DNA from: Escherichia coli
GTDB taxonomy: Bacteria > Pseudomonadota > Gammaproteobacteria > Enterobacterales > Enterobacteriaceae
Assembly (NCBI RefSeq): GCF_002854065.1
Contig: NZ_CP024147.1
Length of the DNA stretch: 64,000 nucleotides
Strand: one strand, 5' to 3'
The notes under the pieces: model-generated
The model's input: only the letters and a program-made list of their open reading frames with translations
Told to the model about the DNA's origin: nothing
Database searches by the model: none
Made by a program: the position numbers and the translations under genes
Shown here: positions 1-18,774 of the stretch, one piece after another
Numbering within the stretch: position 1 is the first letter of the stretch
How the letters are laid out: each line of letters starts with the position of its first letter

Positions 1-133
1 GGGTTAATTGCCCTGATGATTTAACTCGCTCATAGTTTTCTTTCGTTTTAAATAAAATATCTAAAACCAGTTCGTAAGGTCCGGCATTTTTCGAACGAAT
101 GACTTGCGCCAGTGAGACAATTGACTGTTTCAT
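1..133 (-). CDS. hypothetical protein, N-terminal fragment only (gene runs off the window start)
   Basis: Minus-strand ATG at 133..131 overlaps the TGA (132..130) of the upstream 456-aa ORF (ATGA coupling). Frame stays open to position 1 (MKQSIVSLAQVIRSKNAGPYELVLDILFKTKENYERVKSSGQLT...). Absent from the ORF track because it is truncated. Confidence 0.5.
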   Translation of the reverse strand, partial: MKQSIVSLAQVIRSKNAGPYELVLDILFKTKENYERVKSSGQLT

Positions 134-1500
134 GCCTGAACTCCTTCTGGCGTCACCTGTTCAATATGGAAATCAAAACGCAGAGCGTCGTTGGCTTCAA
201 TCAGGTGATATATGGAAAATTCGTATACCGGCCCGCCCTGGATATCAGAAGGGGAGAACGGGAACGCCAGGTTGCCTGCGGTAGCGATGCGGTTTTCATA
301 GCCGTAGTGCAGCATGGTAGAGCGCACCAGCGAGCAAACGCTATTGGCAATTTCCTGGGTCGGTGCAACTACATCAAGGACAATCCCCAGCTCATGCCCG
401 GCAGTTTGCATCGGTTCATGGTCGCCCATCACCCCGTTTTTACCGTACAGGTGGAAAATGATGCGAATGCTGTCATCGTCTAACGACAGGTTACGCGAAA
501 CGCTGGTTTTGACTTCATCGATGATTTTATCGATCCCGGCGATCATGATCGGGTCGCGCGTTCCGGCGATGGTCAGACAGCGGAAGCCCACCCGTCGCGC
601 ACCTTCCAGTTTCAGGGCATACGGCGTTTCTTCATGCTTAGAACCGCTGACGTACACTTCGCCGTCATTGACTGCTTTAAATGTGCAGCCTTTCAGGTTC
701 AACACGCCGCCAGGTCCTGGCAGGAAGTAGGGATCGGATTTCTCATACAGTGTGTGTGCAGCTGCTGACGTTTCGGTAAATTTACGCTTCGGATTAAATG
801 TCTTCAGCGTAAAGCCGTTGTCATCAATGATGCCCATCGCACAGTCAGAGCCTGAGCCGGGCGTTGCGGCGATTGCTGCGCACTCAAGGATTTTCCCACA
901 ATGCAGCGCCAGACCTTCATCAAAGCCTTGCATGATCGGTAGCGCAGCAAAGCAGGCCGGGTCGTAAGCGCGCCCACCCAGCACCACTTGCGCGCCTTCT
1001 TTCAGCGCCCGCTGGAAGGGTTCGATGCCCATTTGCGCGACGATATACGTACTTTCGTCAATCGCGTCGTGGGTTAACGGCGGGACAAAATCCAGCGCCG
1101 TGATTTTGCCGTTATCCAGCGCCTGGTGGACGATGGCTTTGTCAACGTCTGCCGGGATCAACGCCATCGAGAACGAGAGGTGCTCTTCCTGGGCAATCTC
1201 ATGAATTATTTCTCGGCACCACTCCAGGTGTGGTGCGGCACCAGAACCGCCAGCCGTTCCGATCACCACCGGTATATTATTTTGCACGCCTGCGGTGATC
1301 ATATAGCGCAGATCGCGCTTGACCCCTGCGCGATCGGTAAACGGTTTGCCTGCCCCGAGGTAGTGGGGGCCTGGATCGGAAGAGCCTGCATCAACGGCGA
1401 TCAGATCGGGCGATTCTGCCATCGCTTTACGGAAGCTCTCTTCCGGGAATCCATACCCGAGGATTGCCGTTGGCGATAAGACTTTAAAAGAACGAGCCAT
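130..1500 (-). CDS. uncharacterised 456-aa soluble protein co-operonic with methylaspartase (tentatively DUF1446/AtuA-like; family recalled, not searched)
   Basis: Long ORF MARSFKVLSPTAILGYGF...; start 4 nt downstream of the mal stop on the same strand; no hydrophobic TM stretch. Confidence 0.75.
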   Translation of the reverse strand: MARSFKVLSPTAILGYGFPEESFRKAMAESPDLIAVDAGSSDPGPHYLGAGKPFTDRAGVKRDLRYMITAGVQNNIPVVIGTAGGSGAAPHLEWCREIIHEIAQEEHLSFSMALIPADVDKAIVHQALDNGKITALDFVPPLTHDAIDESTYIVAQMGIEPFQRALKEGAQVVLGGRAYDPACFAALPIMQGFDEGLALHCGKILECAAIAATPGSGSDCAMGIIDDNGFTLKTFNPKRKFTETSAAAHTLYEKSDPYFLPGPGGVLNLKGCTFKAVNDGEVYVSGSKHEETPYALKLEGARRVGFRCLTIAGTRDPIMIAGIDKIIDEVKTSVSRNLSLDDDSIRIIFHLYGKNGVMGDHEPMQTAGHELGIVLDVVAPTQEIANSVCSLVRSTMLHYGYENRIATAGNLAFPFSPSDIQGGPVYEFSIYHLIEANDALRFDFHIEQVTPEGVQA

Positions 1501-1503
1501 TTG

Positions 1504-2745
1504 TTAATCCTTAGCCTGCAACAGCGCGATAGTACGATTCATTTCGTTGAAGACGATATCGAGGCCTTCGTCAAAACCCATCCCTGGTTTTACCAGCATA
1601 CGCATAGGGCGAGCGGCAAGGGCGACGTGGACACAGGTGCGGGCACTAACATCAGTTTCATTGCAGGTGCCGCCCTGGTACGCTTCCATGCTGTGGCTGT
1701 TGCAGTAAAGAACCGCATCGACGATGTTGTGAATACTTCCAAGATCCGGGGTTTTGATTTGCACCATGTGACAACTGGCGGCATCAGTGAAATCAACAAT
1801 ATCCTGGTAGGTGTTACACCATTCATCGGCCACAATTTTCACGCCGGAACCGAGGCGCGTCAGCTCTTTGGTAATCGCGGTCAGCAGGCGAATTTGGTCG
1901 GGCTTGTTACCGGCATCGACCGGCCCTTCAATGTAGAGCGGCAGGCCTTGCGCTTCTTTTTCCAGGCTGGCGATGTATTGCGCACAGCGAAGCGGATCCA
2001 TATCGAAGATCAGACCGATAGTGCCGTATACATCGATGTGCAGGGTAGGGTGGTAGCGTGCGCTGGTGCGCTTGCTCAGAATGCGATCCGACAGCCAGCG
2101 GACATATTCGCGCAGTTTTTCACCTTTAAAGCCCAGCTTCTCTTCGACGTTATTAATCAGCGCATGGGGCAGCACGTCGATGCCCTTAAGGATCATCTTA
2201 TCGACGGCGATATATCGATCGTCGCCGCTCTGGCCAAATAATGGAATGGATTCCGCCACGTGTGGCAACTGCCATTCATCACAGACCACTTCAGTTTTCA
2301 GACGGCCGGTTGCCAGCGCAGTAGCATCAAGCAGCGCCTGTGATAATCCGTAGCGCACGGCGGTATGCAGCAAGTTGCCGTCAATACGCAGTTTGTCGAA
2401 GAAACGGGCATTCGGCAGGAAAGCATCCACATCGCGGCCTACCAGTAATGGCTTGATATGGTCGTTGAGGAACGGAATAAAGTGCTCTGCGAGGAACAGT
2501 GGATCGCGACCACCTGCCCCGGAATACTGTACGGCAGCACAGTCACCTACAGCGACCGCGCCGTTTTCCAGAATCAACTGTACCGATACGCACTCCCCGG
2601 CCTGACGAACGGCGTTAAACCCCTGTGTTACCGGCTCCCCGGTATAAAAAAAGCCGTCATGACCCGCTCCGTTTTTTATCGCCTGCTGGTCATCGAAATA
2701 GAATGAGGAGTAGCCAGCGGTGAACAGAGCCTGTTTTATTTTCAT
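1504..2745 (-). CDS. mal: 3-methylaspartate ammonia-lyase (methylaspartase)
   Basis: 413 aa; MKIKQALFTAGYSSFYFDDQQAIKNGAGHDGF...CAAVQYSGAGGRDPLFLAEHFIP...VQIKTPDLG closely resembles clostridial methylaspartase as I recall it; start shares one nt with the glmE stop. Confidence 0.9.
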   Translation of the reverse strand: MKIKQALFTAGYSSFYFDDQQAIKNGAGHDGFFYTGEPVTQGFNAVRQAGECVSVQLILENGAVAVGDCAAVQYSGAGGRDPLFLAEHFIPFLNDHIKPLLVGRDVDAFLPNARFFDKLRIDGNLLHTAVRYGLSQALLDATALATGRLKTEVVCDEWQLPHVAESIPLFGQSGDDRYIAVDKMILKGIDVLPHALINNVEEKLGFKGEKLREYVRWLSDRILSKRTSARYHPTLHIDVYGTIGLIFDMDPLRCAQYIASLEKEAQGLPLYIEGPVDAGNKPDQIRLLTAITKELTRLGSGVKIVADEWCNTYQDIVDFTDAASCHMVQIKTPDLGSIHNIVDAVLYCNSHSMEAYQGGTCNETDVSARTCVHVALAARPMRMLVKPGMGFDEGLDIVFNEMNRTIALLQAKD

Positions 2746-4190
2746 TATGGTCTTTCTATTAATTTACTGTGGGATACAGCATTGATGTCATCTACAACCA
2801 TCTGGAATGTCGGTTGGCGTCCTTCAAAGCGTGCGCGTTCCGCGACGTAATCGTGGTGGAGGTCGAGAATATCTTTTGGCAATGGAACGGCTCCGGCTTC
2901 CAGTACGCGTATCGCGCCGGTGTTGTCACGGACCGGAAGAATATTGCCCGCGTTGCAGGCGGCTGGCGCAAACGGCACATCCAGTACGCCCGCTTCAAAT
3001 GCCAGCACCGTACCGCGCGCAATATCACCATTACCCAGTTCGAACACTTTATTCAGTACCGCGCGAACCTCGCTCTTAATCAGTTCAATTTCCAGTTCAA
3101 CCGCAGGGCACGGCGGGAATTTCTGCTCATTGACCATGTTGAGCATCTGGCGGGAGGCTTTCAGCCCCTGAATGTTGGCAGCGGCAGTCGGGATACCCCA
3201 GGCTTCGTGCGGACTTTTGGTGATGACTTTGGTGGCACCAGACATCCCCGCGACGGCTGCGCCCCAGGAGATAATAGCGAACGCTTTCGATTCGTCTTCC
3301 GGAAAGCCGCCCATCCACTGGTGAAACACGGTACTCAATTCATAGTCGGTATAGCCATAGCTCTGAAAGTATTCGTGTGCAAGTTCACGCAGAGACTGGA
3401 TCGCCGCAACATCCTGCGTCAGGCTGCCGACCTGGCCATAACCAACGGTGATAGATTTCACACCCTGTTCCAGTGCCAGCAAGCCTTCGATTATCGCGAT
3501 AGAGTGCGAGATAAACGGCGGGATCAGCGTACCCGTTAGTGGGCCAAACGGTTCGCGGTTGATGCGGATCCCGTGTTCTTCATACATCCCCATTAAACGG
3601 TCGCAGTACTGCCAGTCGCGGATCGATTTTTCCAGCGTTACGCGTTTGGCATACGGAATGTTGTAGGAAATGCCACCGCCTTCATAACTGGTAAAGCCGC
3701 TGGCCATTGAGATTTCAGCCAGCAGACGCGCATCTGGCGTGCCGTGGCGGATCTGTAGCGGTTTTTGCAGGGTTTCGGTGAGGCGACGGCAAGCTGCGAC
3801 ACCATGGTTAACTACCGGTAAACCGTTCAGTTTAGAGGTTCCGGCTTCGATGGATTTTTTAATCCCTACAGCCGCTTCTTCGTACCGATTCAGACGGGTA
3901 TATGCATCGATGGTGCTTGGCAGCAGATCGCACTCTTCTTGTAGTGTTTTCAGCAGTTCGATGTGTTCGTCCATCAGCGCCACACCTGCGCGCGGTTGGC
4001 TAAGGGTTTTACCTTCCTTGTCTGCTTTCAGCAGCGCAAGAGAGAAGCGTTTATGCTCAGGGATGGTTTGTTGGTATTTAACGCCATCTTCAAAGATTTC
4101 AACATCCTTGCCGGTTTCCCAGGTTTTCAGTACCTGTTGCCGCTCGGTCATGAATTCGTCATGGGTTAATTTCTTATTTCGAAGTTCCAT
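2745..4190 (-). CDS. glmE: glutamate mutase E (epsilon, catalytic) subunit
   Basis: 481 aa, MELRNKKLTHDEFMTERQQVLKTWETGKDV...; size and N-terminus match methylaspartate mutase E chain; sits between glmL and mal. Confidence 0.88.
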   Translation of the reverse strand: MELRNKKLTHDEFMTERQQVLKTWETGKDVEIFEDGVKYQQTIPEHKRFSLALLKADKEGKTLSQPRAGVALMDEHIELLKTLQEECDLLPSTIDAYTRLNRYEEAAVGIKKSIEAGTSKLNGLPVVNHGVAACRRLTETLQKPLQIRHGTPDARLLAEISMASGFTSYEGGGISYNIPYAKRVTLEKSIRDWQYCDRLMGMYEEHGIRINREPFGPLTGTLIPPFISHSIAIIEGLLALEQGVKSITVGYGQVGSLTQDVAAIQSLRELAHEYFQSYGYTDYELSTVFHQWMGGFPEDESKAFAIISWGAAVAGMSGATKVITKSPHEAWGIPTAAANIQGLKASRQMLNMVNEQKFPPCPAVELEIELIKSEVRAVLNKVFELGNGDIARGTVLAFEAGVLDVPFAPAACNAGNILPVRDNTGAIRVLEAGAVPLPKDILDLHHDYVAERARFEGRQPTFQMVVDDINAVSHSKLIERP

Positions 4191-4208: not shown

Positions 4209-5597
4209 TTATAGGGTTAAGCATTGAATACTGGTGCGCGCGGCGGCCAGCGGATCGACTCTGGCGACGTTTGCCAGCAGTGGTAATAGCCCCCGGGAAT
4301 CGCGGTAATATTCAAATTCGGTCGGTAAGAGAATGCGTTTACCGTCGTCGTTTAACTCGCGGTATTTCAACCAGTGATGCATATCGAACTGACTGGCACG
4401 CGAGAGCCATCCGCCGGATCCGACGACTTTACGCACGGTTGTCAGGTCACGTCCCATCTGTAAATCGACATTGCCGACGCAGGTGCAGACCTCTTTTTTG
4501 GTGCCCGCATGTCTTTCGGTGGCATAACCCACACACAGTCCGGCCAGGACGGTATCGAAATATTTCTCTTCTGCATTTGCGGGTAAGTAGTCGGGATGAG
4601 CGACTAGATGACGGAGGTAATGATAAAAAGCGTCCAGCTGTGCGGGTTGCTGAGCAAAATTCACATTGACTAACTCTTTCGCACTTTCACCAACCACCAC
4701 TGCCGAGACGCGCATTCCCAGATCGCCTTCCACCGTCCGTTTTACGAAGGGTTCCGGTACGCCGTGTAAAACGGTGTCGGGCGAGAGCGTGTTGGCACAG
4801 GCGGAATAAACATCGGTGGTTGCGCCGCCCATGTCGATCAGCATGAACTCTTTCCAGCTGTGATCGACGTTACTGATTGCCTTGACCAGTTCAAAGACCG
4901 TCCATGGTGTCGGCATTGGTTCTTCGCCTGTTTTATCAACAATGACATCCAGCCCTTTCCCTTTAACGATGCGTTTAAGGAATATGTCGCAAATAGCCTG
5001 GCGTGCGGCTAAAGGGTTCGGATGGTCAAGATCGGGCAGAACATTGTCGACGATGGTCAGGTCTTTATGCCCGAGGATCTCCTGCACCTCGTCCTGAATA
5101 TCCCGGTTTCCGGCATAAATAATGGCGCAGTCGAGTTTGGATTCTGCCAGCACACGGGCGTTATTCAGTCCGTAGCTTTCTTCTCCGCCGTCGGTGCCGC
5201 CGGTGAACAAGAGAATATCGGGCTGCGTTTCTTCCAGTGCCTGGATATCACGGCGGTTCAGCTTGTAGGCGTAATATTGCGCAATTTTAGCACCCGCAGA
5301 GTGAGCGGTTACTTTCGCGGTTTCCAGGGTGATAGAAGGCACCAATCCCATTGCGGCAACCGCCAGCCCACCTTTGGCAGAGGAGGAATACTTCAATGCA
5401 ACCTCACCGCTGTTTAACAGGGGGAGGGCATTATCTACGTTTAACACCTGGTTCAGGCTGGAGAAAAACCCCTTCGCCAGATGATGGGTGGTGGTTGGGG
5501 TCAGTACGTGGTTAACCAACGTTAACGCGTCCCCCTCCCGGGTGAAGAGGGCTGCTTTGGTCCACGTCGATCCAATATCGACAGAGACGATTTGCAT
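4209..5597 (-). CDS. glmL: glutamate mutase accessory protein (MutL/GlmL-like, ATPase-fold putative reactivase)
   Basis: 462 aa, [18 protein letters not shown]... (actin/hexokinase-like N-terminal phosphate motif); located between S and E subunit genes as in clostridial mutS-mutL-mutE. Confidence 0.8.
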   Translation of the reverse strand: MQIVSVDIGSTWTKAALFTREGDALTLVNHVLTPTTTHHLAKGFFSSLNQVLNVDNALPLLNSGEVALKYSSSAKGGLAVAAMGLVPSITLETAKVTAHSAGAKIAQYYAYKLNRRDIQALEETQPDILLFTGGTDGGEESYGLNNARVLAESKLDCAIIYAGNRDIQDEVQEILGHKDLTIVDNVLPDLDHPNPLAARQAICDIFLKRIVKGKGLDVIVDKTGEEPMPTPWTVFELVKAISNVDHSWKEFMLIDMGGATTDVYSACANTLSPDTVLHGVPEPFVKRTVEGDLGMRVSAVVVGESAKELVNVNFAQQPAQLDAFYHYLRHLVAHPDYLPANAEEKYFDTVLAGLCVGYATERHAGTKKEVCTCVGNVDLQMGRDLTTVRKVVGSGGWLSRASQFDMHHWLKYRELNDDGKRILLPTEFEYYRDSRGLLPLLANVARVDPLAAARTSIQCLTL

Positions 5598-6046
5598 CAG
5601 ATAGCCTCTTCAAGAATACGAGTATCAACGTCATGACGTTGGTTGATATCGTGGGCCATCAGCTGACAAACATCTTCTAAGTCATGACTTGGGGCAAAGA
5701 CGCGATCAAATCCCATCTCTTTGAATTTGGTTTCCACGTCAGCGAAGTCATGTTTTCCGACCACCAGGTTACCGCCCACATAGAGCAGGATGTCCCCCAG
5801 TCCACGCTCGATGCAGCGTTCGCGCATGCCCAGACAGTCGATATCGCCATGCCCATAGATAGAGGAGACGACAATCGCGTCAGCGCCAGTTTCAATGGCC
5901 GCATCAATATATTCGTCCTGGCTGACCATTACGCCCAGATTAATGACTCTGAAGTCGTGGTTGCTAAAAACGCGGTCCAGAACTTTATTGCCTACTGCAT
6001 GGCAGTCCGCGCCAATAACGCCAATCACAAGTGTTGCTTTCTTCAT
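5597..6046 (-). CDS. glutamate mutase S (sigma, cobalamin-binding) subunit; symbol left blank because glmS/mutS clash with unrelated E. coli genes
   Basis: [23 protein letters not shown]... carries the DxHxxG B12-binding signature; start moved from track ORF 6109 to ATG 6046 with AAGGA RBS 7 nt upstream; stop shares one nt with glmL start. Confidence 0.85.
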
Positions 6047-6592
6047 GGGTAATCCTTTGTAAGACAGAGAGTAAAATAAGTTACACACGTCGTATTTATG
6101 GCCGTTCATAACGGCACAGGTTTAATATCACAGGAGTGTCTTTATCTGACCGTAATGTTGCAATTGATCTATTTTCAAAATGTCTTTCGGGAAATGATTG
6201 TTTAAAGTGTGTTTTTAAATTCCCATGTTAATTCAGTATGTTATGTCAACTAATGTCATGAATGTTAAATTTTTAAAATTAACTTGATTTAATGTATTGA
6301 GATAATTGTGATCTACTTCTAATTTGCATTTTAGTGATATGGGTTTAGCCATGAGTAAATGCATTTCATAAAATTTAAGTCGAATTTCACTGCAATTCAT
6401 CTCTGCTTAATGTAAAAATAATGTTGAAAATAACAAATGGTTAATGATTCATGCGAATTATGACGTTAGTTAGCTCTTTTGATTTTTCGTAAAAAAGAGA
6501 GGTACATGAAGGTGCTACCAGTATGAGTAACGTTAATCAAAGGTTTTATTACGTCTGGCAATAACGCAGGCCATTTTCGCGACTGGGTGGAT

Positions 6593-7015
6593 TTAATCAG
6601 TATAATCCTCATACAATATTTCAGGATTAACTGAACCGTTAACCGGGTTTTGGTGTTGAAATTTAGAAATGGCGGAGTCAATCAATGAAGACAGTATCGA
6701 AAAAATAACTGTGTCAGAACTAATTTCAATTAATCCTTCTCGTTGTTGACCAAAAAAGATATTTATCTTGATTTCATTTGTACTACGGCAATCAATATGT
6801 AGTAATTTTTGATCGCTGAGATTTTCTGTTTCATAAATGTTTTTGGCGATAGTCGGATGTATTGATGCCAGACATCTGCTCAGATAAGCCAGATCCTTTA
6901 GGGAACACCCCGCTGAGTAGAGGATGTCAGAGAATTTTTGTGTGTCAACTGTTGTCTCTGAAGCGTATGTTGCATTGACAGGAAGGGTGTTGAAAGAGAT
7001 TTGAGATGGGATCAT
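6593..7015 (-). CDS. hypothetical acidic 140-aa protein, unknown function
   Basis: Intact ORF in AT-rich DNA; net negative charge (about 17 D/E vs 9 K/R); no TM segment; GGAAAG about 9 nt upstream of ATG; co-directional with the 314-aa ORF 81 bp upstream. Confidence 0.6.
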   Translation of the reverse strand: MIPSQISFNTLPVNATYASETTVDTQKFSDILYSAGCSLKDLAYLSRCLASIHPTIAKNIYETENLSDQKLLHIDCRSTNEIKINIFFGQQREGLIEISSDTVIFSILSSLIDSAISKFQHQNPVNGSVNPEILYEDYTD

Positions 7016-7096
7016 TATTTAAATCTTTCCGTGAGTAATAAAAATTAATCCCCAGGCATTGTTTAACAATATTTGCCATAGGGGATATATAGAAAA

Positions 7097-8041
7097 TTAA
7101 AGTATTTTATTGGCTTCGGTTAACTGATCTATAACCAGTGCCAGATTGGTAAACATTTTGAAAAAGCGATACTGGCTCGGAATATCTCTTTCAAAGACGA
7201 AACATTCAAGGTCATTGTTTGAAAAATAAAGGACTAGTGTTGCTGATTCGTCAGGGAAAACATGGAAATGTATCTGGTTACCAGAAGGAGGATAGTCCAG
7301 AAGAAGGGTATCTTTGCCCGTCACATACCTGTTGTTGTCGTGGACGCTACGCTCACACTTCATCAGAGGTGTCAGGATACTCATGTATTCATCTGATGTT
7401 AATTTATTAAAATCATCATTCATTTTAAAGAAACGATAAAGTAACAGTACATCCTCTTGCGTAACCGGTTCGTTTGTTTTTAGAGGGAAATAAGCGGGAA
7501 CCAGAAGATGAGGTTCTAATCTATTTTGTTGAGCGCTATAACTGAATTTGAACATAAATTCCGGATCGCTCATCAATTGAGCGACATAATTATGCCTGGC
7601 TTCGAAAATTTTAATTTTTATCAGGTTAAATAAGTCTGTTTCGTCATCCTGTATTAAAAGACATTGGCCATAGCAGCCAGGCTTTTTTTCATTATAAGCA
7701 GAAACGGTTATTCTGTCAGAGGTGTCAACGTTATATTCAAAAGCCAGATAGTGACCTTCTTCATCGCGATTTGTTTCCAGGTTATTTAAATTCATCACAT
7801 GAAGTGTTTGCAATGCTGATTCAATGAGCTGTTGACTCTCTGAGGTAAATGTTTCGCGCTGCGTTGTATAAAGTGTATCAATTCCAACGACTATCCGATG
7901 TGGGTCAAGGATGGCGGCAATCATCTTTATTACCTGCACAGTCACGGGTGATGTCATTGATTCTTTATCTGTTTTTAGAGAATCATTAGATGGCCAACCT
8001 GAGAAGCGATTGACAGCCGAACCGATATTATCAGGACTCAT
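7097..8041 (-). CDS. hypothetical 314-aa protein, unknown function
   Basis: Intact ORF in AT-rich DNA; GAGG 8 nt upstream of ATG; Ser/Thr/Asn-rich N-terminus; no TM segment, P-loop or HEXXH motif; not recognisable as any K-12 protein. Confidence 0.7.
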   Translation of the reverse strand: MSPDNIGSAVNRFSGWPSNDSLKTDKESMTSPVTVQVIKMIAAILDPHRIVVGIDTLYTTQRETFTSESQQLIESALQTLHVMNLNNLETNRDEEGHYLAFEYNVDTSDRITVSAYNEKKPGCYGQCLLIQDDETDLFNLIKIKIFEARHNYVAQLMSDPEFMFKFSYSAQQNRLEPHLLVPAYFPLKTNEPVTQEDVLLLYRFFKMNDDFNKLTSDEYMSILTPLMKCERSVHDNNRYVTGKDTLLLDYPPSGNQIHFHVFPDESATLVLYFSNNDLECFVFERDIPSQYRFFKMFTNLALVIDQLTEANKIL

Positions 8042-8495
8042 AGCAGCAACCTCATTGTAATCAAGCGAGGCGCTGAGCGTACTCGGCTATAGAAAAACTA
8101 ACTTGCAAAAATCGCTCATTTTTCATTTATCAGGCGAAAGTGGTCTCTGTACACTCAGAAACAATCACTCCCGCTAAGTCATACCTGTTTCATCGATACA
8201 TTTAAGTGATTATTACTAATGAAACAATAACATAACGGGCTTACGGTCGGTGCTCATAAAGGCAACAATCAATTAACTTTGATAAAAATATGTTATGTAA
8301 AATAGCAACAAATTGGCTACTCTAATCAATTGGTATTATAAAAAGTGGATAAGGCGGTTCTGTTAAATAAAATACTGGTTTTTTATCTATACCTTTTCAT
8401 TGTAATAATTGTGTTGCATAAATATTTCACAATAAATTAACAATAAAATCACCAATGATCTATGGTTTATACATAATTAACATATTTGGTTGGTT

Positions 8496-8509
8496 TTGAT
8501 ATAAATCAA
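8496..8509 (+). promoter_or_regulatory. FNR-type site TTGAT-N4-ATCAA in cydA upstream region
   Basis: Perfect palindrome ttgatataaatcaa; cydAB is known to be FNR/ArcA controlled. Confidence 0.6.
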
Positions 8510-8846
8510 TTTTTAATTCTTGAAAAAAATCTGCAAAACACGATAAATTGTCGTAGATCAAATTGATGAGATCGTGACAATTTCGCTATAAATTGATCAC
8601 TGTCGAAAAATGCAAATTTGCTCAATAAAAACCTGTTTATTGTAAGGATTTTGCGGCGTAATATAATTACGGGATCAATTTGGTTTATTCATTAACATAT
8701 TTGTAACTTTTTTATCATTGTCTTTTCCTCTTTTGATGAAATGGCAACGATAGGGGCGAGCAAATAATTTTGTATTGGGGCATGCGTGTGACCCTTTCTA
8801 ACGGGGTTCACTCTCGGAGTCTTCATGCGATGAGCAAGGAGTCATG

Positions 8847-10415
8847 ATGTTAGATATAGTCGAACTGTCGCGCTTACAGTTTGCCTTGACCGCGATGTAC
8901 CACTTCCTTTTTGTGCCACTGACGCTCGGTATGGCGTTCCTGCTGGCCATTATGGAAACGGTCTACGTCCTTTCCGGCAAACAGATTTATAAAGATATGA
9001 CCAAGTTCTGGGGCAAGTTGTTTGGTATCAACTTCGCTCTGGGTGTGGCTACCGGTCTGACCATGGAGTTCCAGTTCGGGACTAACTGGTCTTACTATTC
9101 CCACTATGTAGGGGATATCTTCGGTGCGCCGCTGGCAATCGAAGGTCTGATGGCCTTCTTCCTCGAATCCACCTTTGTAGGTCTGTTCTTCTTCGGTTGG
9201 GATCGTCTGGGTAAAGTTCAGCATATGTGTGTCACCTGGCTGGTGGCGCTCGGTTCAAACCTGTCCGCGCTGTGGATTCTGGTTGCAAACGGCTGGATGC
9301 AAAACCCAATCGCGTCCGATTTCAACTTTGAAACTATGCGTATGGAGATGGTGAGCTTCTCCGAGCTGGTGCTTAACCCGGTTGCTCAGGTGAAATTCGT
9401 TCACACTGTAGCGTCTGGTTATGTGACTGGCGCGATGTTCATCCTCGGTATCAGCGCATGGTATATGCTGAAAGGTCGTGACTTCGCCTTCGCTAAACGC
9501 TCCTTTGCTATCGCTGCCAGCTTCGGTATGGCTGCCGTTCTGTCTGTTATTGTTCTGGGTGATGAATCCGGCTACGAAATGGGCGACGTGCAGAAAACCA
9601 AACTGGCTGCTATTGAAGCTGAGTGGGAAACGCAACCTGCGCCTGCTGCCTTTACTCTGTTCGGCATTCCTGATCAGGAAGAGGAGACGAACAAATTTGC
9701 GATCCAGATCCCTTACGCGCTGGGCATCATTGCAACGCGTTCCGTGGATACTCCAGTTATCGGCCTGAAAGAACTGATGGTGCAGCATGAAGAACGCATT
9801 CGTAACGGGATGAAGGCGTACTCTCTGCTCGAGCAACTGCGTTCTGGTTCTACCGACCAGGCGGTTCGTGACCAGTTCAACAGCATGAAGAAAGACCTCG
9901 GTTACGGTCTGCTGCTGAAACGCTATACGCCAAACGTGGCTGATGCGACTGAAGCGCAGATTCAACAGGCAACCAAAGACTCCATTCCGCGTGTAGCGCC
10001 GCTGTACTTCGCGTTCCGTATCATGGTGGCGTGTGGCTTCCTGCTGCTGGCAATCATCGCGCTCTCTTTCTGGAGTGTCATCCGCAACCGCATTGGCGAG
10101 AAAAAATGGCTCCTGCGCGCCGCGCTGTACGGTATTCCGCTGCCGTGGATTGCTGTAGAAGCGGGCTGGTTCGTGGCTGAATATGGCCGCCAACCGTGGG
10201 CTATCGGTGAAGTGCTGCCGACAGCTGTGGCGAACTCGTCACTGACCGCAGGCGATCTCATCTTCTCAATGGTGCTGATTTGCGGCCTGTATACCCTGTT
10301 CCTGGTGGCAGAATTGTTCTTAATGTTCAAGTTTGCACGCCTCGGCCCAAGCAGCCTGAAAACCGGTCGCTATCACTTTGAGCAGTCTTCCACGACTACT
10401 CAGCCGGCACGCTAA
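8847..10415 (+). CDS. cydA: cytochrome bd-I ubiquinol oxidase subunit I
   Basis: [28 protein letters not shown]...; 522 aa from second ATG (AAGGA RBS 6 nt upstream). Confidence 0.97.
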
Positions 10416-17972: not shown

Positions 17973-18048
17973 GGGTCGTTAGCTCAGTTGGTAGAGCAGT
18001 TGACTTTTAATCAATTGGTCGCAGGTTCGAATCCTGCACGACCCACCA
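17973..18048 (+). tRNA. lysT: tRNA-Lys (anticodon UUU)
   Basis: 76-nt gggtcgttagctcagttggtagagcagttgacttttaatcaattggtcgcaggttcgaatcctgcacgacccacca with encoded CCA. Confidence 0.97.
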
Positions 18049-18083
18049 CTAACCTAGTTAGTTGTAGTATCCAGCGTAGTATC

Positions 18084-18159
18084 GGGTGATTAGCTCAGCT
18101 GGGAGAGCACCTCCCTTACAAGGAGGGGGTCGGCGGTTCGATCCCGTCATCACCCACCA
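18084..18159 (+). tRNA. valT: tRNA-Val (anticodon UAC)
   Basis: 76-nt gggtgattagctcagctgggagagcacctcccttacaaggagggggtcggcggttcgatcccgtcatcacccacca. Confidence 0.97.
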
Positions 18160-18161
18160 CC

Positions 18162-18237
18162 GGGTCGTTAGCTCAGTTGGTAGAGCAGTTGACTTTTAAT
18201 CAATTGGTCGCAGGTTCGAATCCTGCACGACCCACCA
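18162..18237 (+). tRNA. lysW: tRNA-Lys (UUU)
   Basis: Identical copy of the lysT sequence. Confidence 0.97.
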
Positions 18238-18288
18238 CTAATTACGGTGGGTTCGGTGGAAGTAGTTTGTAGTATCCAGCGCAGTATC

Positions 18289-18364
18289 GGGTGATTAGCT
18301 CAGCTGGGAGAGCACCTCCCTTACAAGGAGGGGGTCGGCGGTTCGAACCCGTCATCACCCACCA
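18289..18364 (+). tRNA. valZ: tRNA-Val (UAC), T-loop variant
   Basis: Same as valT except gttcgaaccc instead of gttcgatccc in the T-loop. Confidence 0.95.
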
Positions 18365-18367
18365 CTC

Positions 18368-18443
18368 GGGTCGTTAGCTCAGTTGGTAGAGCAGTTGACT
18401 TTTAATCAATTGGTCGCAGGTTCGAATCCTGCACGACCCACCA
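18368..18443 (+). tRNA. lysY: tRNA-Lys (UUU)
   Basis: Identical copy. Confidence 0.97.
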
Positions 18444-18495
18444 GTTTTAACATCAAACTCAGATGTTAAGCGTGAAGGATAACGTTGCGCCAGCA

Positions 18496-18541
18496 ACGGC
18501 CCGTAGGGCGAGCGAAGCGAGTCATCCTGCACGACCCACCA
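18496..18541 (+). repeat. tRNA-Lys 3'-end remnant repeat, copy 1
   Basis: acggcccgtagggcgagcgaagcgagtc followed by atcctgcacgacccacca, the exact last 18 nt of tRNA-Lys; no 5' half. Confidence 0.7.
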
Positions 18542-18589
18542 ATCTTAAAGATTGGCCCCGAGTAAAAATCTTTCAGGTAACACCCGTAT

Positions 18590-18665
18590 GGGTCGTTAGC
18601 TCAGTTGGTAGAGCAGTTGACTTTTAATCAATTGGTCGCAGGTTCGAATCCTGCACGACCCACCA
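18590..18665 (+). tRNA. lysZ: tRNA-Lys (UUU)
   Basis: Identical copy. Confidence 0.97.
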
Positions 18666-18698
18666 TCCTGAATGATTAAAGCAGCATAATCCCGCAAG

Positions 18699-18774
18699 GG
18701 GTCGTTAGCTCAGTTGGTAGAGCAGTTGACTTTTAATCAATTGGTCGCAGGTTCGAATCCTGCACGACCCACCA
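18699..18774 (+). tRNA. lysQ: tRNA-Lys (UUU)
   Basis: Identical copy; last gene of the array. Confidence 0.97.

Follow-up and report, generated by a model that had tools for sequence, protein, structure and literature searches.

Probable LysR-dependent promoter and operator upstream of the glutamate mutase operon of Escherichia coli

What switches on the glutamate fermentation genes of enterobacteria is the question raised by the AT-rich intergenic gap that precedes glmS, at the head of a glutamate mutase operon, on an Escherichia coli chromosome of which a stretch of 64,000 nucleotides (the window) was analysed. The locus is that of the methylaspartate/mesaconate cluster of O157:H7 and other enterobacteria described by Kronen and Berg in 2015 (PMC4682846), a paper which cites Kato and Asano (1997) and which already lists glmS, glmL, glmE, mal, an AtuA-like gene, a DUF4387 gene, gltP, fumD, cobO and a putative LysR regulator. 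The cluster could not be induced in O157:H7 and no inducing conditions were found, owing to which its physiological role in E. coli is unknown (PMC4682846); whereas that paper gives no promoter, operator or regulatory signal for the cluster, these are the subject of the present analysis. A preliminary description of the window had proposed the gap upstream of glmS as a candidate site for the operon promoter, and the comparisons below bear this out, as the motif flagged there proved to be the centre of the only segment of the gap that is conserved between genera. This segment (6128-6199, minus strand) probably represents a weak sigma-70 promoter together with the operator of the glmS-glmL-glmE-mal operon, dependent for its activity on a LysR-type regulator.

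Sequences upstream of glmS were compared for 80 loci, fetched from a collection with one genome per species. Outside Escherichia, similarity was limited to gap positions 6122-6245, with most genera matching only approximately 6159-6205, and the part conserved between genera comprises approximately 75 bp. An invariant block, TT(T/C)TGAAAATAGATCAATTGC, is present in 27 aligned Enterobacteriaceae sequences, and the box TGAAAATAGATCAATTG was found to be identical at 17 of 17 positions in all 38 Enterobacteriaceae-type loci (L001 to L056), the exceptions among the fetched Enterobacteriaceae loci being those of Yokenella type and one metagenome-assembled genome (MAG). Diverged but recognisable forms occur in Yersinia (TGACAATAAATCAATTG), Morganella (TTACTTTATATCAATTG) and Yokenella (TCAAATTTTATCAATTG), as well as in Budvicia and Hafnia, and a position weight matrix of the box has a single match in the whole window. 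The first 13 nt of the box (6165-6177) form the dyad TGA-N7-TCA, which conforms to the T-N11-A definition given in PMC11495319; its right arm is invariant, most taxa have TGA as the left arm, with TCA, TTA or TGC taking its place in some, and the symmetric arms of the box as a whole read TTGA-N7-TCAA. The string ttgatctattttcaa flagged in the preliminary description is present at 6164-6178 (plus strand), where it sits inside the box and constitutes its core.

A hexamer of the form nAnAnT follows the box at a distance of exactly 20 nt in all Enterobacterales loci. It appears as GACACT, GAAACT or CACACT in Enterobacteriaceae, as CATATT in Yokenella, and as CACATT in Yersinia, Hafnia, Budvicia and Morganella, and the arrangement of TTGnnn, 17 bp and nAnAnT is fixed across five Enterobacterales families (22 taxa). 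The spacing falls within the 17 +/- 1 bp of sigma-70 promoters, the predicted hexamers of E. coli agree with the sigma-70 consensus at 7 of 12 positions, and the promoter should consequently need an activator; a standard promoter scan of the gap missed the TTGCAA/GACACT pair because the hexamers are too weak. From the position of the -10 hexamer we infer that transcription starts at A6128. The block upstream of the box aligns without gaps and at a fixed distance from it in 22 taxa, with a mean majority fraction of 0.80 (-74 to -51) as compared to 0.57 further upstream (-110 to -75); the corresponding values are 0.99 for -50 to -33, 0.62 for the spacer (-32 to -14) and 0.89 for the -10 hexamer. 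The cluster is carried by 1135 of 5426 complete E. coli genomes (approximately one fifth), among them O157:H7, O55:H7 and O145:H28 (K-12 is without it), and in 1097 of these 1135 island-bearing genomes an 81-bp promoter-operator core is 100% identical. The whole gap is at least 99% identical in only 3 of the 1135, otherwise differing by 1-5%. Judged by this pattern of variation, the 81-bp core is under purifying selection within E. coli.

In three genomes a second box was found at another promoter of the pathway, at the same 20-nt distance from a -10-like hexamer and with unrelated flanks. Yokenella (L084) carries TCAAGTTGTCTTCAAATTTTATCAATTGC at the glmS promoter and TCAAGTTGTCTTCATTTTTTTTCAATTGC at an operon with FecCD, ABC, TonB-receptor and BtuF-like genes; L091 carries TCAAGTTATCTTCATTTTTTATAAGTTGC at glmS and TCAAGTTATCTTCATTTTTTTTAAATTGC at an operon of the same type; and on a single MAG contig (L093/L038) TGCAAATATATCAATTG belongs to the glmS promoter and TGCGGATAGATCAATTGC to fumD-cobO. 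The two boxes of each genome share the same lineage changes, these being TCA...TCAATTG in Yokenella, TCA...TAAnTTG in L091 and TGC...TCAATTG in L093/L038. Such concerted change points to a dedicated regulator that co-evolves with its operator, and not to a global regulator such as FNR or CRP, whose specificity is fixed. The glm operon of Yokenella was also seen to follow the corrinoid-uptake-like operon bearing this box.

Exactly one regulator is encoded by the cluster, a GcvA/DsdC-like protein of the LysR type (WP_001214263-type) for which the GcvA subfamily model gave the highest score, although one under the cut-off of that model (221 bits vs 288), followed by DsdC. In E. coli its gene lies beyond cobO, with which it is convergent, approximately 9 kb from glmS and just outside the window. 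Named orthologues (54-99% identity) came solely from taxa reported or seen to hold the cluster, and below these identity falls to GcvA-like proteins at no more than 47%. Every context examined had the gene inside or adjoining the cluster, or adjoining a detached fumD-cobO module, with a total of six arrangements. The regulator gene and cluster are situated between sucD and cydA in E. coli and Salmonella and at a different chromosomal site in Enterobacter; in Yersinia the regulator gene precedes glmS by approximately 2.7 kb, the interval being occupied by cobalamin-related genes; in Yokenella and L091 it is divergent from the uptake operon with the second box; in L090 it is directly divergent from glmS, the shared intergenic region containing the box-like TGCAAAAAAATAAATTGC; and in L093 it is immediately upstream of the box-bearing fumD promoter, with fumD-cobO just downstream. 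In the Betaproteobacteria Aromatoleum and Rhodoferax, glmS is directly divergent from the gene of a more remote homologue of the regulator (42-45% identity).

We propose that transcription would proceed from near 6128 at a weak promoter consisting of the -35 hexamer TTGCAA, a 17-bp spacer and the -10 hexamer GACACT, and that the conserved stretch of approximately 40 bp from -71 to -33 would serve as the operator, its core dyad TGA-N7-TCA, centred at -43, being fused to the -35 hexamer. The activator would most likely be the LysR-type regulator from the far end of the cluster, adjacent to cobO. If it behaves as other LysR regulators do, a tetramer might occupy -71 to -33 and, once bound by its inducer, for which glutamate, methylaspartate, mesaconate or a corrinoid are candidates, recruit RNA polymerase; the rest of the gap would be an AT-rich spacer. 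The conserved stretch contains two elements, centred at approximately -62 and at -43, of which the latter is the better conserved, and in LysR-regulated promoters a regulatory site near -65 is accompanied by one or more activation sites overlapping -35 (PMC11495319), a layout which the stretch resembles. Taken with the travelling regulator gene and the concerted boxes, it appears likely on balance that the protein bound here is the cluster's own LysR-type regulator and not FNR.

Several observations weigh against this model. Conservation is strongest at -49 to -33, whereas textbook LysR promoters have their best-conserved and most symmetric site near -65. In Yokenella (TCA), Morganella (TTA) and L038 (TGC) the dyad loses its symmetry on the left side, and the element also permits a reading as three direct T(C/G)AA repeats at intervals of 10-11 bp. 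Upstream of the regulator gene no box was found in E. coli, Salmonella or Enterobacter, and self-regulation through the box was rejected for these three, O157 having only a weak, non-conserved 13/17 match in that region. No regulator gene was found within 4 kb of glmS in Morganella, Hafnia and Budvicia, the rest of these genomes not having been checked. Finally, a hexamer TATTAA at +2 to +7 (within 6115-6127) is kept in Enterobacteriaceae and not in Yersinia or Morganella. Preceded in Escherichia by a TG at a distance of two bases, it resembles an extended -10 there, and it may function as an alternative -10 or bind another protein.

Some of these points recur in the strongest of the alternatives, namely that the box is the operator of another dedicated regulator encoded outside the cluster, for example a response regulator or an AraC-type activator reading direct repeats. 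Repeats of the form TCAAGn-N5-T(G/C)AAnn-N4-TCAATT are present in Yokenella and Yersinia, the left arm is not always symmetric, and the strongest conservation abuts -35, which recalls promoters whose activator site overlaps that hexamer. However, the sole regulator that travels with the cluster is of the LysR type, in all six arrangements, and no response regulator or AraC-type gene does so, while the concerted box changes call for a regulator that diverges between the genomes concerned, as the LysR regulator does (54-64% identity). An activator of another family is, on this evidence, rather unlikely. A broader version of the LysR model is similarly speculative and advanced only tentatively: the box would define a small, horizontally moving and previously undescribed regulon, composed of the glutamate mutase/methylaspartase operon, the mesaconase and adenosyltransferase genes fumD-cobO and, in some genera, an operon for TonB-dependent corrinoid uptake, under a dedicated, co-evolved GcvA-like LysR regulator, whose inducer, either an intermediate of the pathway or a corrinoid, together with H-NS silencing spreading from AT-rich open reading frames (ORFs) inserted upstream, would explain the silence of the cluster in O157:H7 in the laboratory.

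The preliminary description had interpreted the flagged motif as imperfect FNR-like half-sites around 6165 to 6180, and had proposed the AT-rich gap as a candidate for H-NS silencing with anaerobic activation by FNR, which as considered here would act at a class II promoter. When the box is read as an FNR site, the half nearer the promoter matches ATCAA perfectly, and the centre of the 14-mer falls at -42.5 as counted from the inferred start, near the class II position of -41.5. The gap has 32% GC within a 2.8-kb AT-rich tract, and the failure to induce the cluster in O157:H7 fits silencing. Methylaspartase was reportedly found, in work of Kato and Asano, in enterobacteria grown under oxygen limitation, a finding that counts in favour of FNR. 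Known producers of methylaspartase include Citrobacter amalonaticus and Morganella morganii. Against this, the other half-site is TGAAA, and the resulting score of 7/10 against TTGAT-N4-ATCAA is reached by 314 sites in the window and is at the level of chance; the TTGA-N7-TCAA arms are one base wider than those of CRP/FNR-family sites (TGA-N6-TCA); and the left arm differs from genus to genus and changes in concert at the paired promoters of one genome, which is unexpected for FNR. The half-sites are for these reasons not upheld, and FNR-dependent activation here is improbable. The same scan detects real sites, as it recovered a perfect FNR site, TTGATATAAATCAA (10/10), at 8496-8509 upstream of cydA. 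Upstream of cydA there are also two 8/10 sites (8548-8561 and 8593-8606); all three FNR sites are presumably part of the known control of cydAB by oxygen and not of the glm operon.

As regards H-NS, silencing is plausible as an additional layer alongside LysR-dependent activation, and would agree with the lack of induction reported for O157:H7 (PMC4682846). The curved-DNA-like A/T tracts invoked in the preliminary description proved to be nothing beyond AT-richness, with 15 tracts of at least 4 A or T in the gap as compared to 12.9 +/- 3.4 in composition-matched simulations and no 10-11 bp phasing of AA/TT dinucleotides. Searches of the gap for canonical sites of ArcA, IHF, Lrp, FNR and CRP and for the high-affinity motif of H-NS returned chance-level matches only, except for a distal CRP-like element that is considered below. 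A role for Dam methylation was rejected, the GATC within the box not being conserved in Yersinia, Budvicia and Yokenella, and neither a sigma-54 promoter nor an ArgR box, both compared by eye, fits.

Least probable of the explanations considered is that glmS lacks a separate promoter and is transcribed by read-through from the hypothetical 140-aa and 314-aa ORFs upstream, or that the gap is a structured leader RNA or riboswitch (for example for cobalamin): a terminator scan found none after the 140-aa ORF, which leaves room for some read-through, and glutamate mutase needs adenosylcobalamin, but the conserved promoter is present in E. whittamii and more than 10 genera without both ORFs, and the predicted leader is short. 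As the promoter is older than the insertion of these ORFs, read-through cannot be the sole source of glmS transcription, to which it may nevertheless add. Cobalamin and other riboswitches, and a small RNA, were ruled out by the lack of any Rfam match at E<=1 on 5500-9200 or at the gathering score in six other genera, by the absence of a consensus fold (RNAalifold predicted 0 pairs on the 5' untranslated regions (UTRs) of 20 species) and by folding no better than that of shuffled sequences (z-score -0.82 for the 5' UTR and 0.02 for 6453-6592). A hairpin in the E. coli leader is local, not conserved, and absent from C. amalonaticus.

The long, AT-rich, non-coding gap between the 140-aa ORF and glmS was correctly recognised in the preliminary description, its GC content being 0.321 (0.313 over 6110-6592) and no credible ORF being present. 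Its boundary required adjustment: with glmS starting at 6046 instead of 6109, the gap begins at 6047 and not at 6110. The start at ATG 6046-6044 agrees with the match of residues 1-147 of the 149-aa product to the MutS model (148 positions), with RefSeq, which also places it at 6046, and with the retention of the Shine-Dalgarno sequence and ATG (AGAGGA...ATG context) in approximately 50 loci. An extended start at the upstream in-frame ATG at 6109 was rejected as not conserved, this ATG being missing from E. whittamii. There is no conserved ORF in the gap, and a leader peptide or other small ORF was ruled out, as the largest ORF inside the gap (6233-6400, minus strand; 55 aa) is not conserved, being broken by frameshifts or stops in E. 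coli L087, Escherichia sp. L027, E. whittamii and Escherichia sp. E1V33. The GC content is 0.532 in the operon and 0.510 in the whole window, as compared to 0.37-0.39 in the two hypothetical ORFs and 0.33 in the cydA upstream region, giving an AT-rich tract of approximately 2.8 kb at 32-39% GC in a 51% GC context. The region 5900-7100 of this chromosome is 100% identical to strains 100416 and CUWW06.

Between the promoter and the insertion lies an AT-rich region which E. coli has in common with E. whittamii and Escherichia sp. E1V33 and which is, by that distribution, ancestral to Escherichia. Of the distal CRP-like element in this region, compared with TGTGA-N6-TCACA, the right half is retained between genera, the left half being weak in some of them or missing, and its position at -186.5 is non-standard for activation by CRP. 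From the half-site GATCACAAA to the dyad centre downstream the distance is 138-144 bp in 13 Enterobacteriaceae and 151-173 bp in taxa further removed, and this fixed spacing may point to DNA looping or a second promoter. In some genera another element, (T/C)TCACA, is located approximately 70-80 bp upstream of GATCACAAA.

The segment that follows, which holds the two hypothetical ORFs, separates the ancestral glmS promoter region from the cydA regulatory region, with cydA itself divergent, at 8844, beyond both ORFs. Nothing corresponding to its 3' flank within the gap occurs in E. whittamii, Escherichia sp. E1V33 or other genera. All of these are without the inserted segment and have glmS directly divergent from cydA, and in island-less E. 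coli (phylogroup B2 type) homology resumes at 8206. Both ORFs were found only in E. coli and the close relative L027, in which they are degraded, and the 314-aa ORF is frameshifted in O55:H7 CB9615. Neither ORF belongs to a Pfam, NCBIfam, PADLOC or PHROG family; a phmmer search with the 314-aa ORF against 1.84 billion representative proteins returned only its own fragments, and tblastn of the two ORFs against plasmids returned only E. coli chromosomes mislabelled as plasmids. No convincing flanking repeats or target-site duplication were found around the segment. As far as this distribution tells, the two ORFs are a recent insertion in E. coli and one close relative and not part of the ancestral cluster. 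The coordinates of all features are collected in the table.

Table. Features of the glm locus, given as positions in the window
Feature	Position	Strand	Remarks
AtuA-family gene	130-1500	-	
Methylaspartate ammonia-lyase gene (mal)	1504-2745	-	
glmE	2745-4190	-	
glmL	4209-5597	-	
glmS (methylaspartate mutase subunit S, 149 aa)	5597-6046	-	NCBIfam NF002612 (MutS model), E=4.5e-76, full length
Whole intergenic gap, glmS to 140-aa ORF	6047-6592		546 bp, GC 0.32
5' UTR (predicted)	6047-6128	-	82 nt; Shine-Dalgarno AAAGGA at 6053-6058; hairpin at ~6099-6116
Promoter-operator core	6125-6205	-	81 bp; apparent purifying selection within E. coli
-10 hexamer GACACT (predicted)	6135-6140	-	A2, A4 and T6 conserved
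-35 hexamer TTGCAA (predicted)	6158-6163	-	17 bp upstream of -10; its TTG is the end of the box
Invariant box TGAAAATAGATCAATTG	6161-6177	-	T-N11-A dyad, TGA-N7-TCA; centre 6171, predicted -43
Upstream conserved block ..ATCATTTcccGAAAGAcattt	6178-6199	-	-50 to -71; core TTT..(A/C)AAGA
AT-rich upstream region	6200-6452		common to E. coli, E. whittamii and Escherichia sp. E1V33
Distal CRP-like element TTAGA-N6-TCACA	6307-6322		8/10 to CRP core; centre -186.5
3' flank of insertion	6453-6592		lacking in E. whittamii, Escherichia sp. E1V33 and other genera; no terminator predicted
Inserted segment with 140-aa and 314-aa ORFs	~6453-8205	ORFs -	between ancestral glmS promoter region and cydA regulatory region
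140-aa hypothetical ORF	6593-7015	-	
314-aa hypothetical ORF	7097-8041	-	

A number of further observations were made on the cluster, its regulator and the box. Decay of the cluster was seen in a Salmonella record (LR134141; L086 19246-20637), in which glmL is split into three ORFs, and in O55:H7 CB9615, in which cobO is frameshifted (L088 5584-6185). Strain CUWW06 carries an IS1 element 300 bp upstream of the regulator gene (L083 7436-8133, outside the window), which might affect how the regulator is expressed; no insertion sequence is present there in O157:H7 or O55:H7. The glm operon follows cobalamin-related genes (cobD-like, pduX-like and cysG-like) in Yersinia, Budvicia and Morganella (among L042, L039 and L046), and on two metagenomic Enterobacterales contigs (L093 and L094) the regulator gene follows a cbi/cob operon; the pathway is tied to B12 supply in gene order and perhaps also in regulation. 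In a Telmatospirillum MAG, an Alphaproteobacterium, TGAAAATAGATCGTTTC is present approximately 200 nt upstream of glmS (L068 3779-3795) as a 12-nt exact match to the enterobacterial box, in an AT-rich patch of a GC-rich genome and with TGAAAAT repeated alongside; no LysR regulator gene is found within 4 kb at that locus. Five tRNA-Lys genes at 18000-18740 of the window match TTGA-N7-TCAA, and even T[GC]A-N7-TCAATTG, by way of the anticodon arm TTGACTTTTAATCAATTG; these matches are chance look-alikes which would contaminate genome-wide scans for the motif.

Literature searches covering locus tags, expression data and regulator studies returned nothing beyond PMC4682846, and both the cis-elements and the insertion of orphan ORFs between the promoter and cydA are undescribed in the searchable literature. 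The promoter is itself of an ordinary kind, being activator-dependent with an operator of the LysR type as predicted here, and the preliminary description located the right element and named the wrong protein for it. The analysis corrects a tempting but wrong FNR annotation of the box, narrows the control region to approximately 75 bp and names one candidate regulator, thereby providing a testable lead for an operon that nobody has switched on in E. coli O157:H7 (PMC4682846). An open-ended hunt for inducing conditions can in this way be replaced by defined tests of regulator, inducer and box.

Comparison with known systems places the locus as follows. It shares with acquired DNA silenced by H-NS a tract of 2.8 kb with 32-39% GC in a 51% GC context, an AT content typical of such DNA, which is partly lineage-specific, and the neighbouring cydA promoter was reported by Govantes et al. 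in 2000 to be an H-NS target; unlike such DNA, it has no A-tract excess or phasing, and its core promoter is conserved across genera and not foreign. With class II FNR promoters such as narG (TTGAT-N4-ATCAA at -41.5) it has in common a TTGA/TCAA inverted repeat centred at approximately -42/-43 and abutting -35, one perfect ATCAA half-site and an anaerobic pathway, from which it departs by N7 as against N6 between TTGA and TCAA, by a score of 7/10 and by a left arm that is not conserved and co-varies. As compared to the LysR-activated promoters of BenM/benA, CbnR/cbnA, GcvA/gcvT and DsdC/dsdXA, the regulator gene is distant in E. coli (approximately 9 kb), the best element is at -43 and not at -65, and neither a self-regulation site nor a CTAAT-type GcvA motif was found. 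Like these promoters, it combines a weak sigma-70 promoter, a T-N11-A dyad and an operator of approximately 40 bp with a regulator gene that resides within the catabolic cluster and is, in some genomes, directly divergent from its presumed target.

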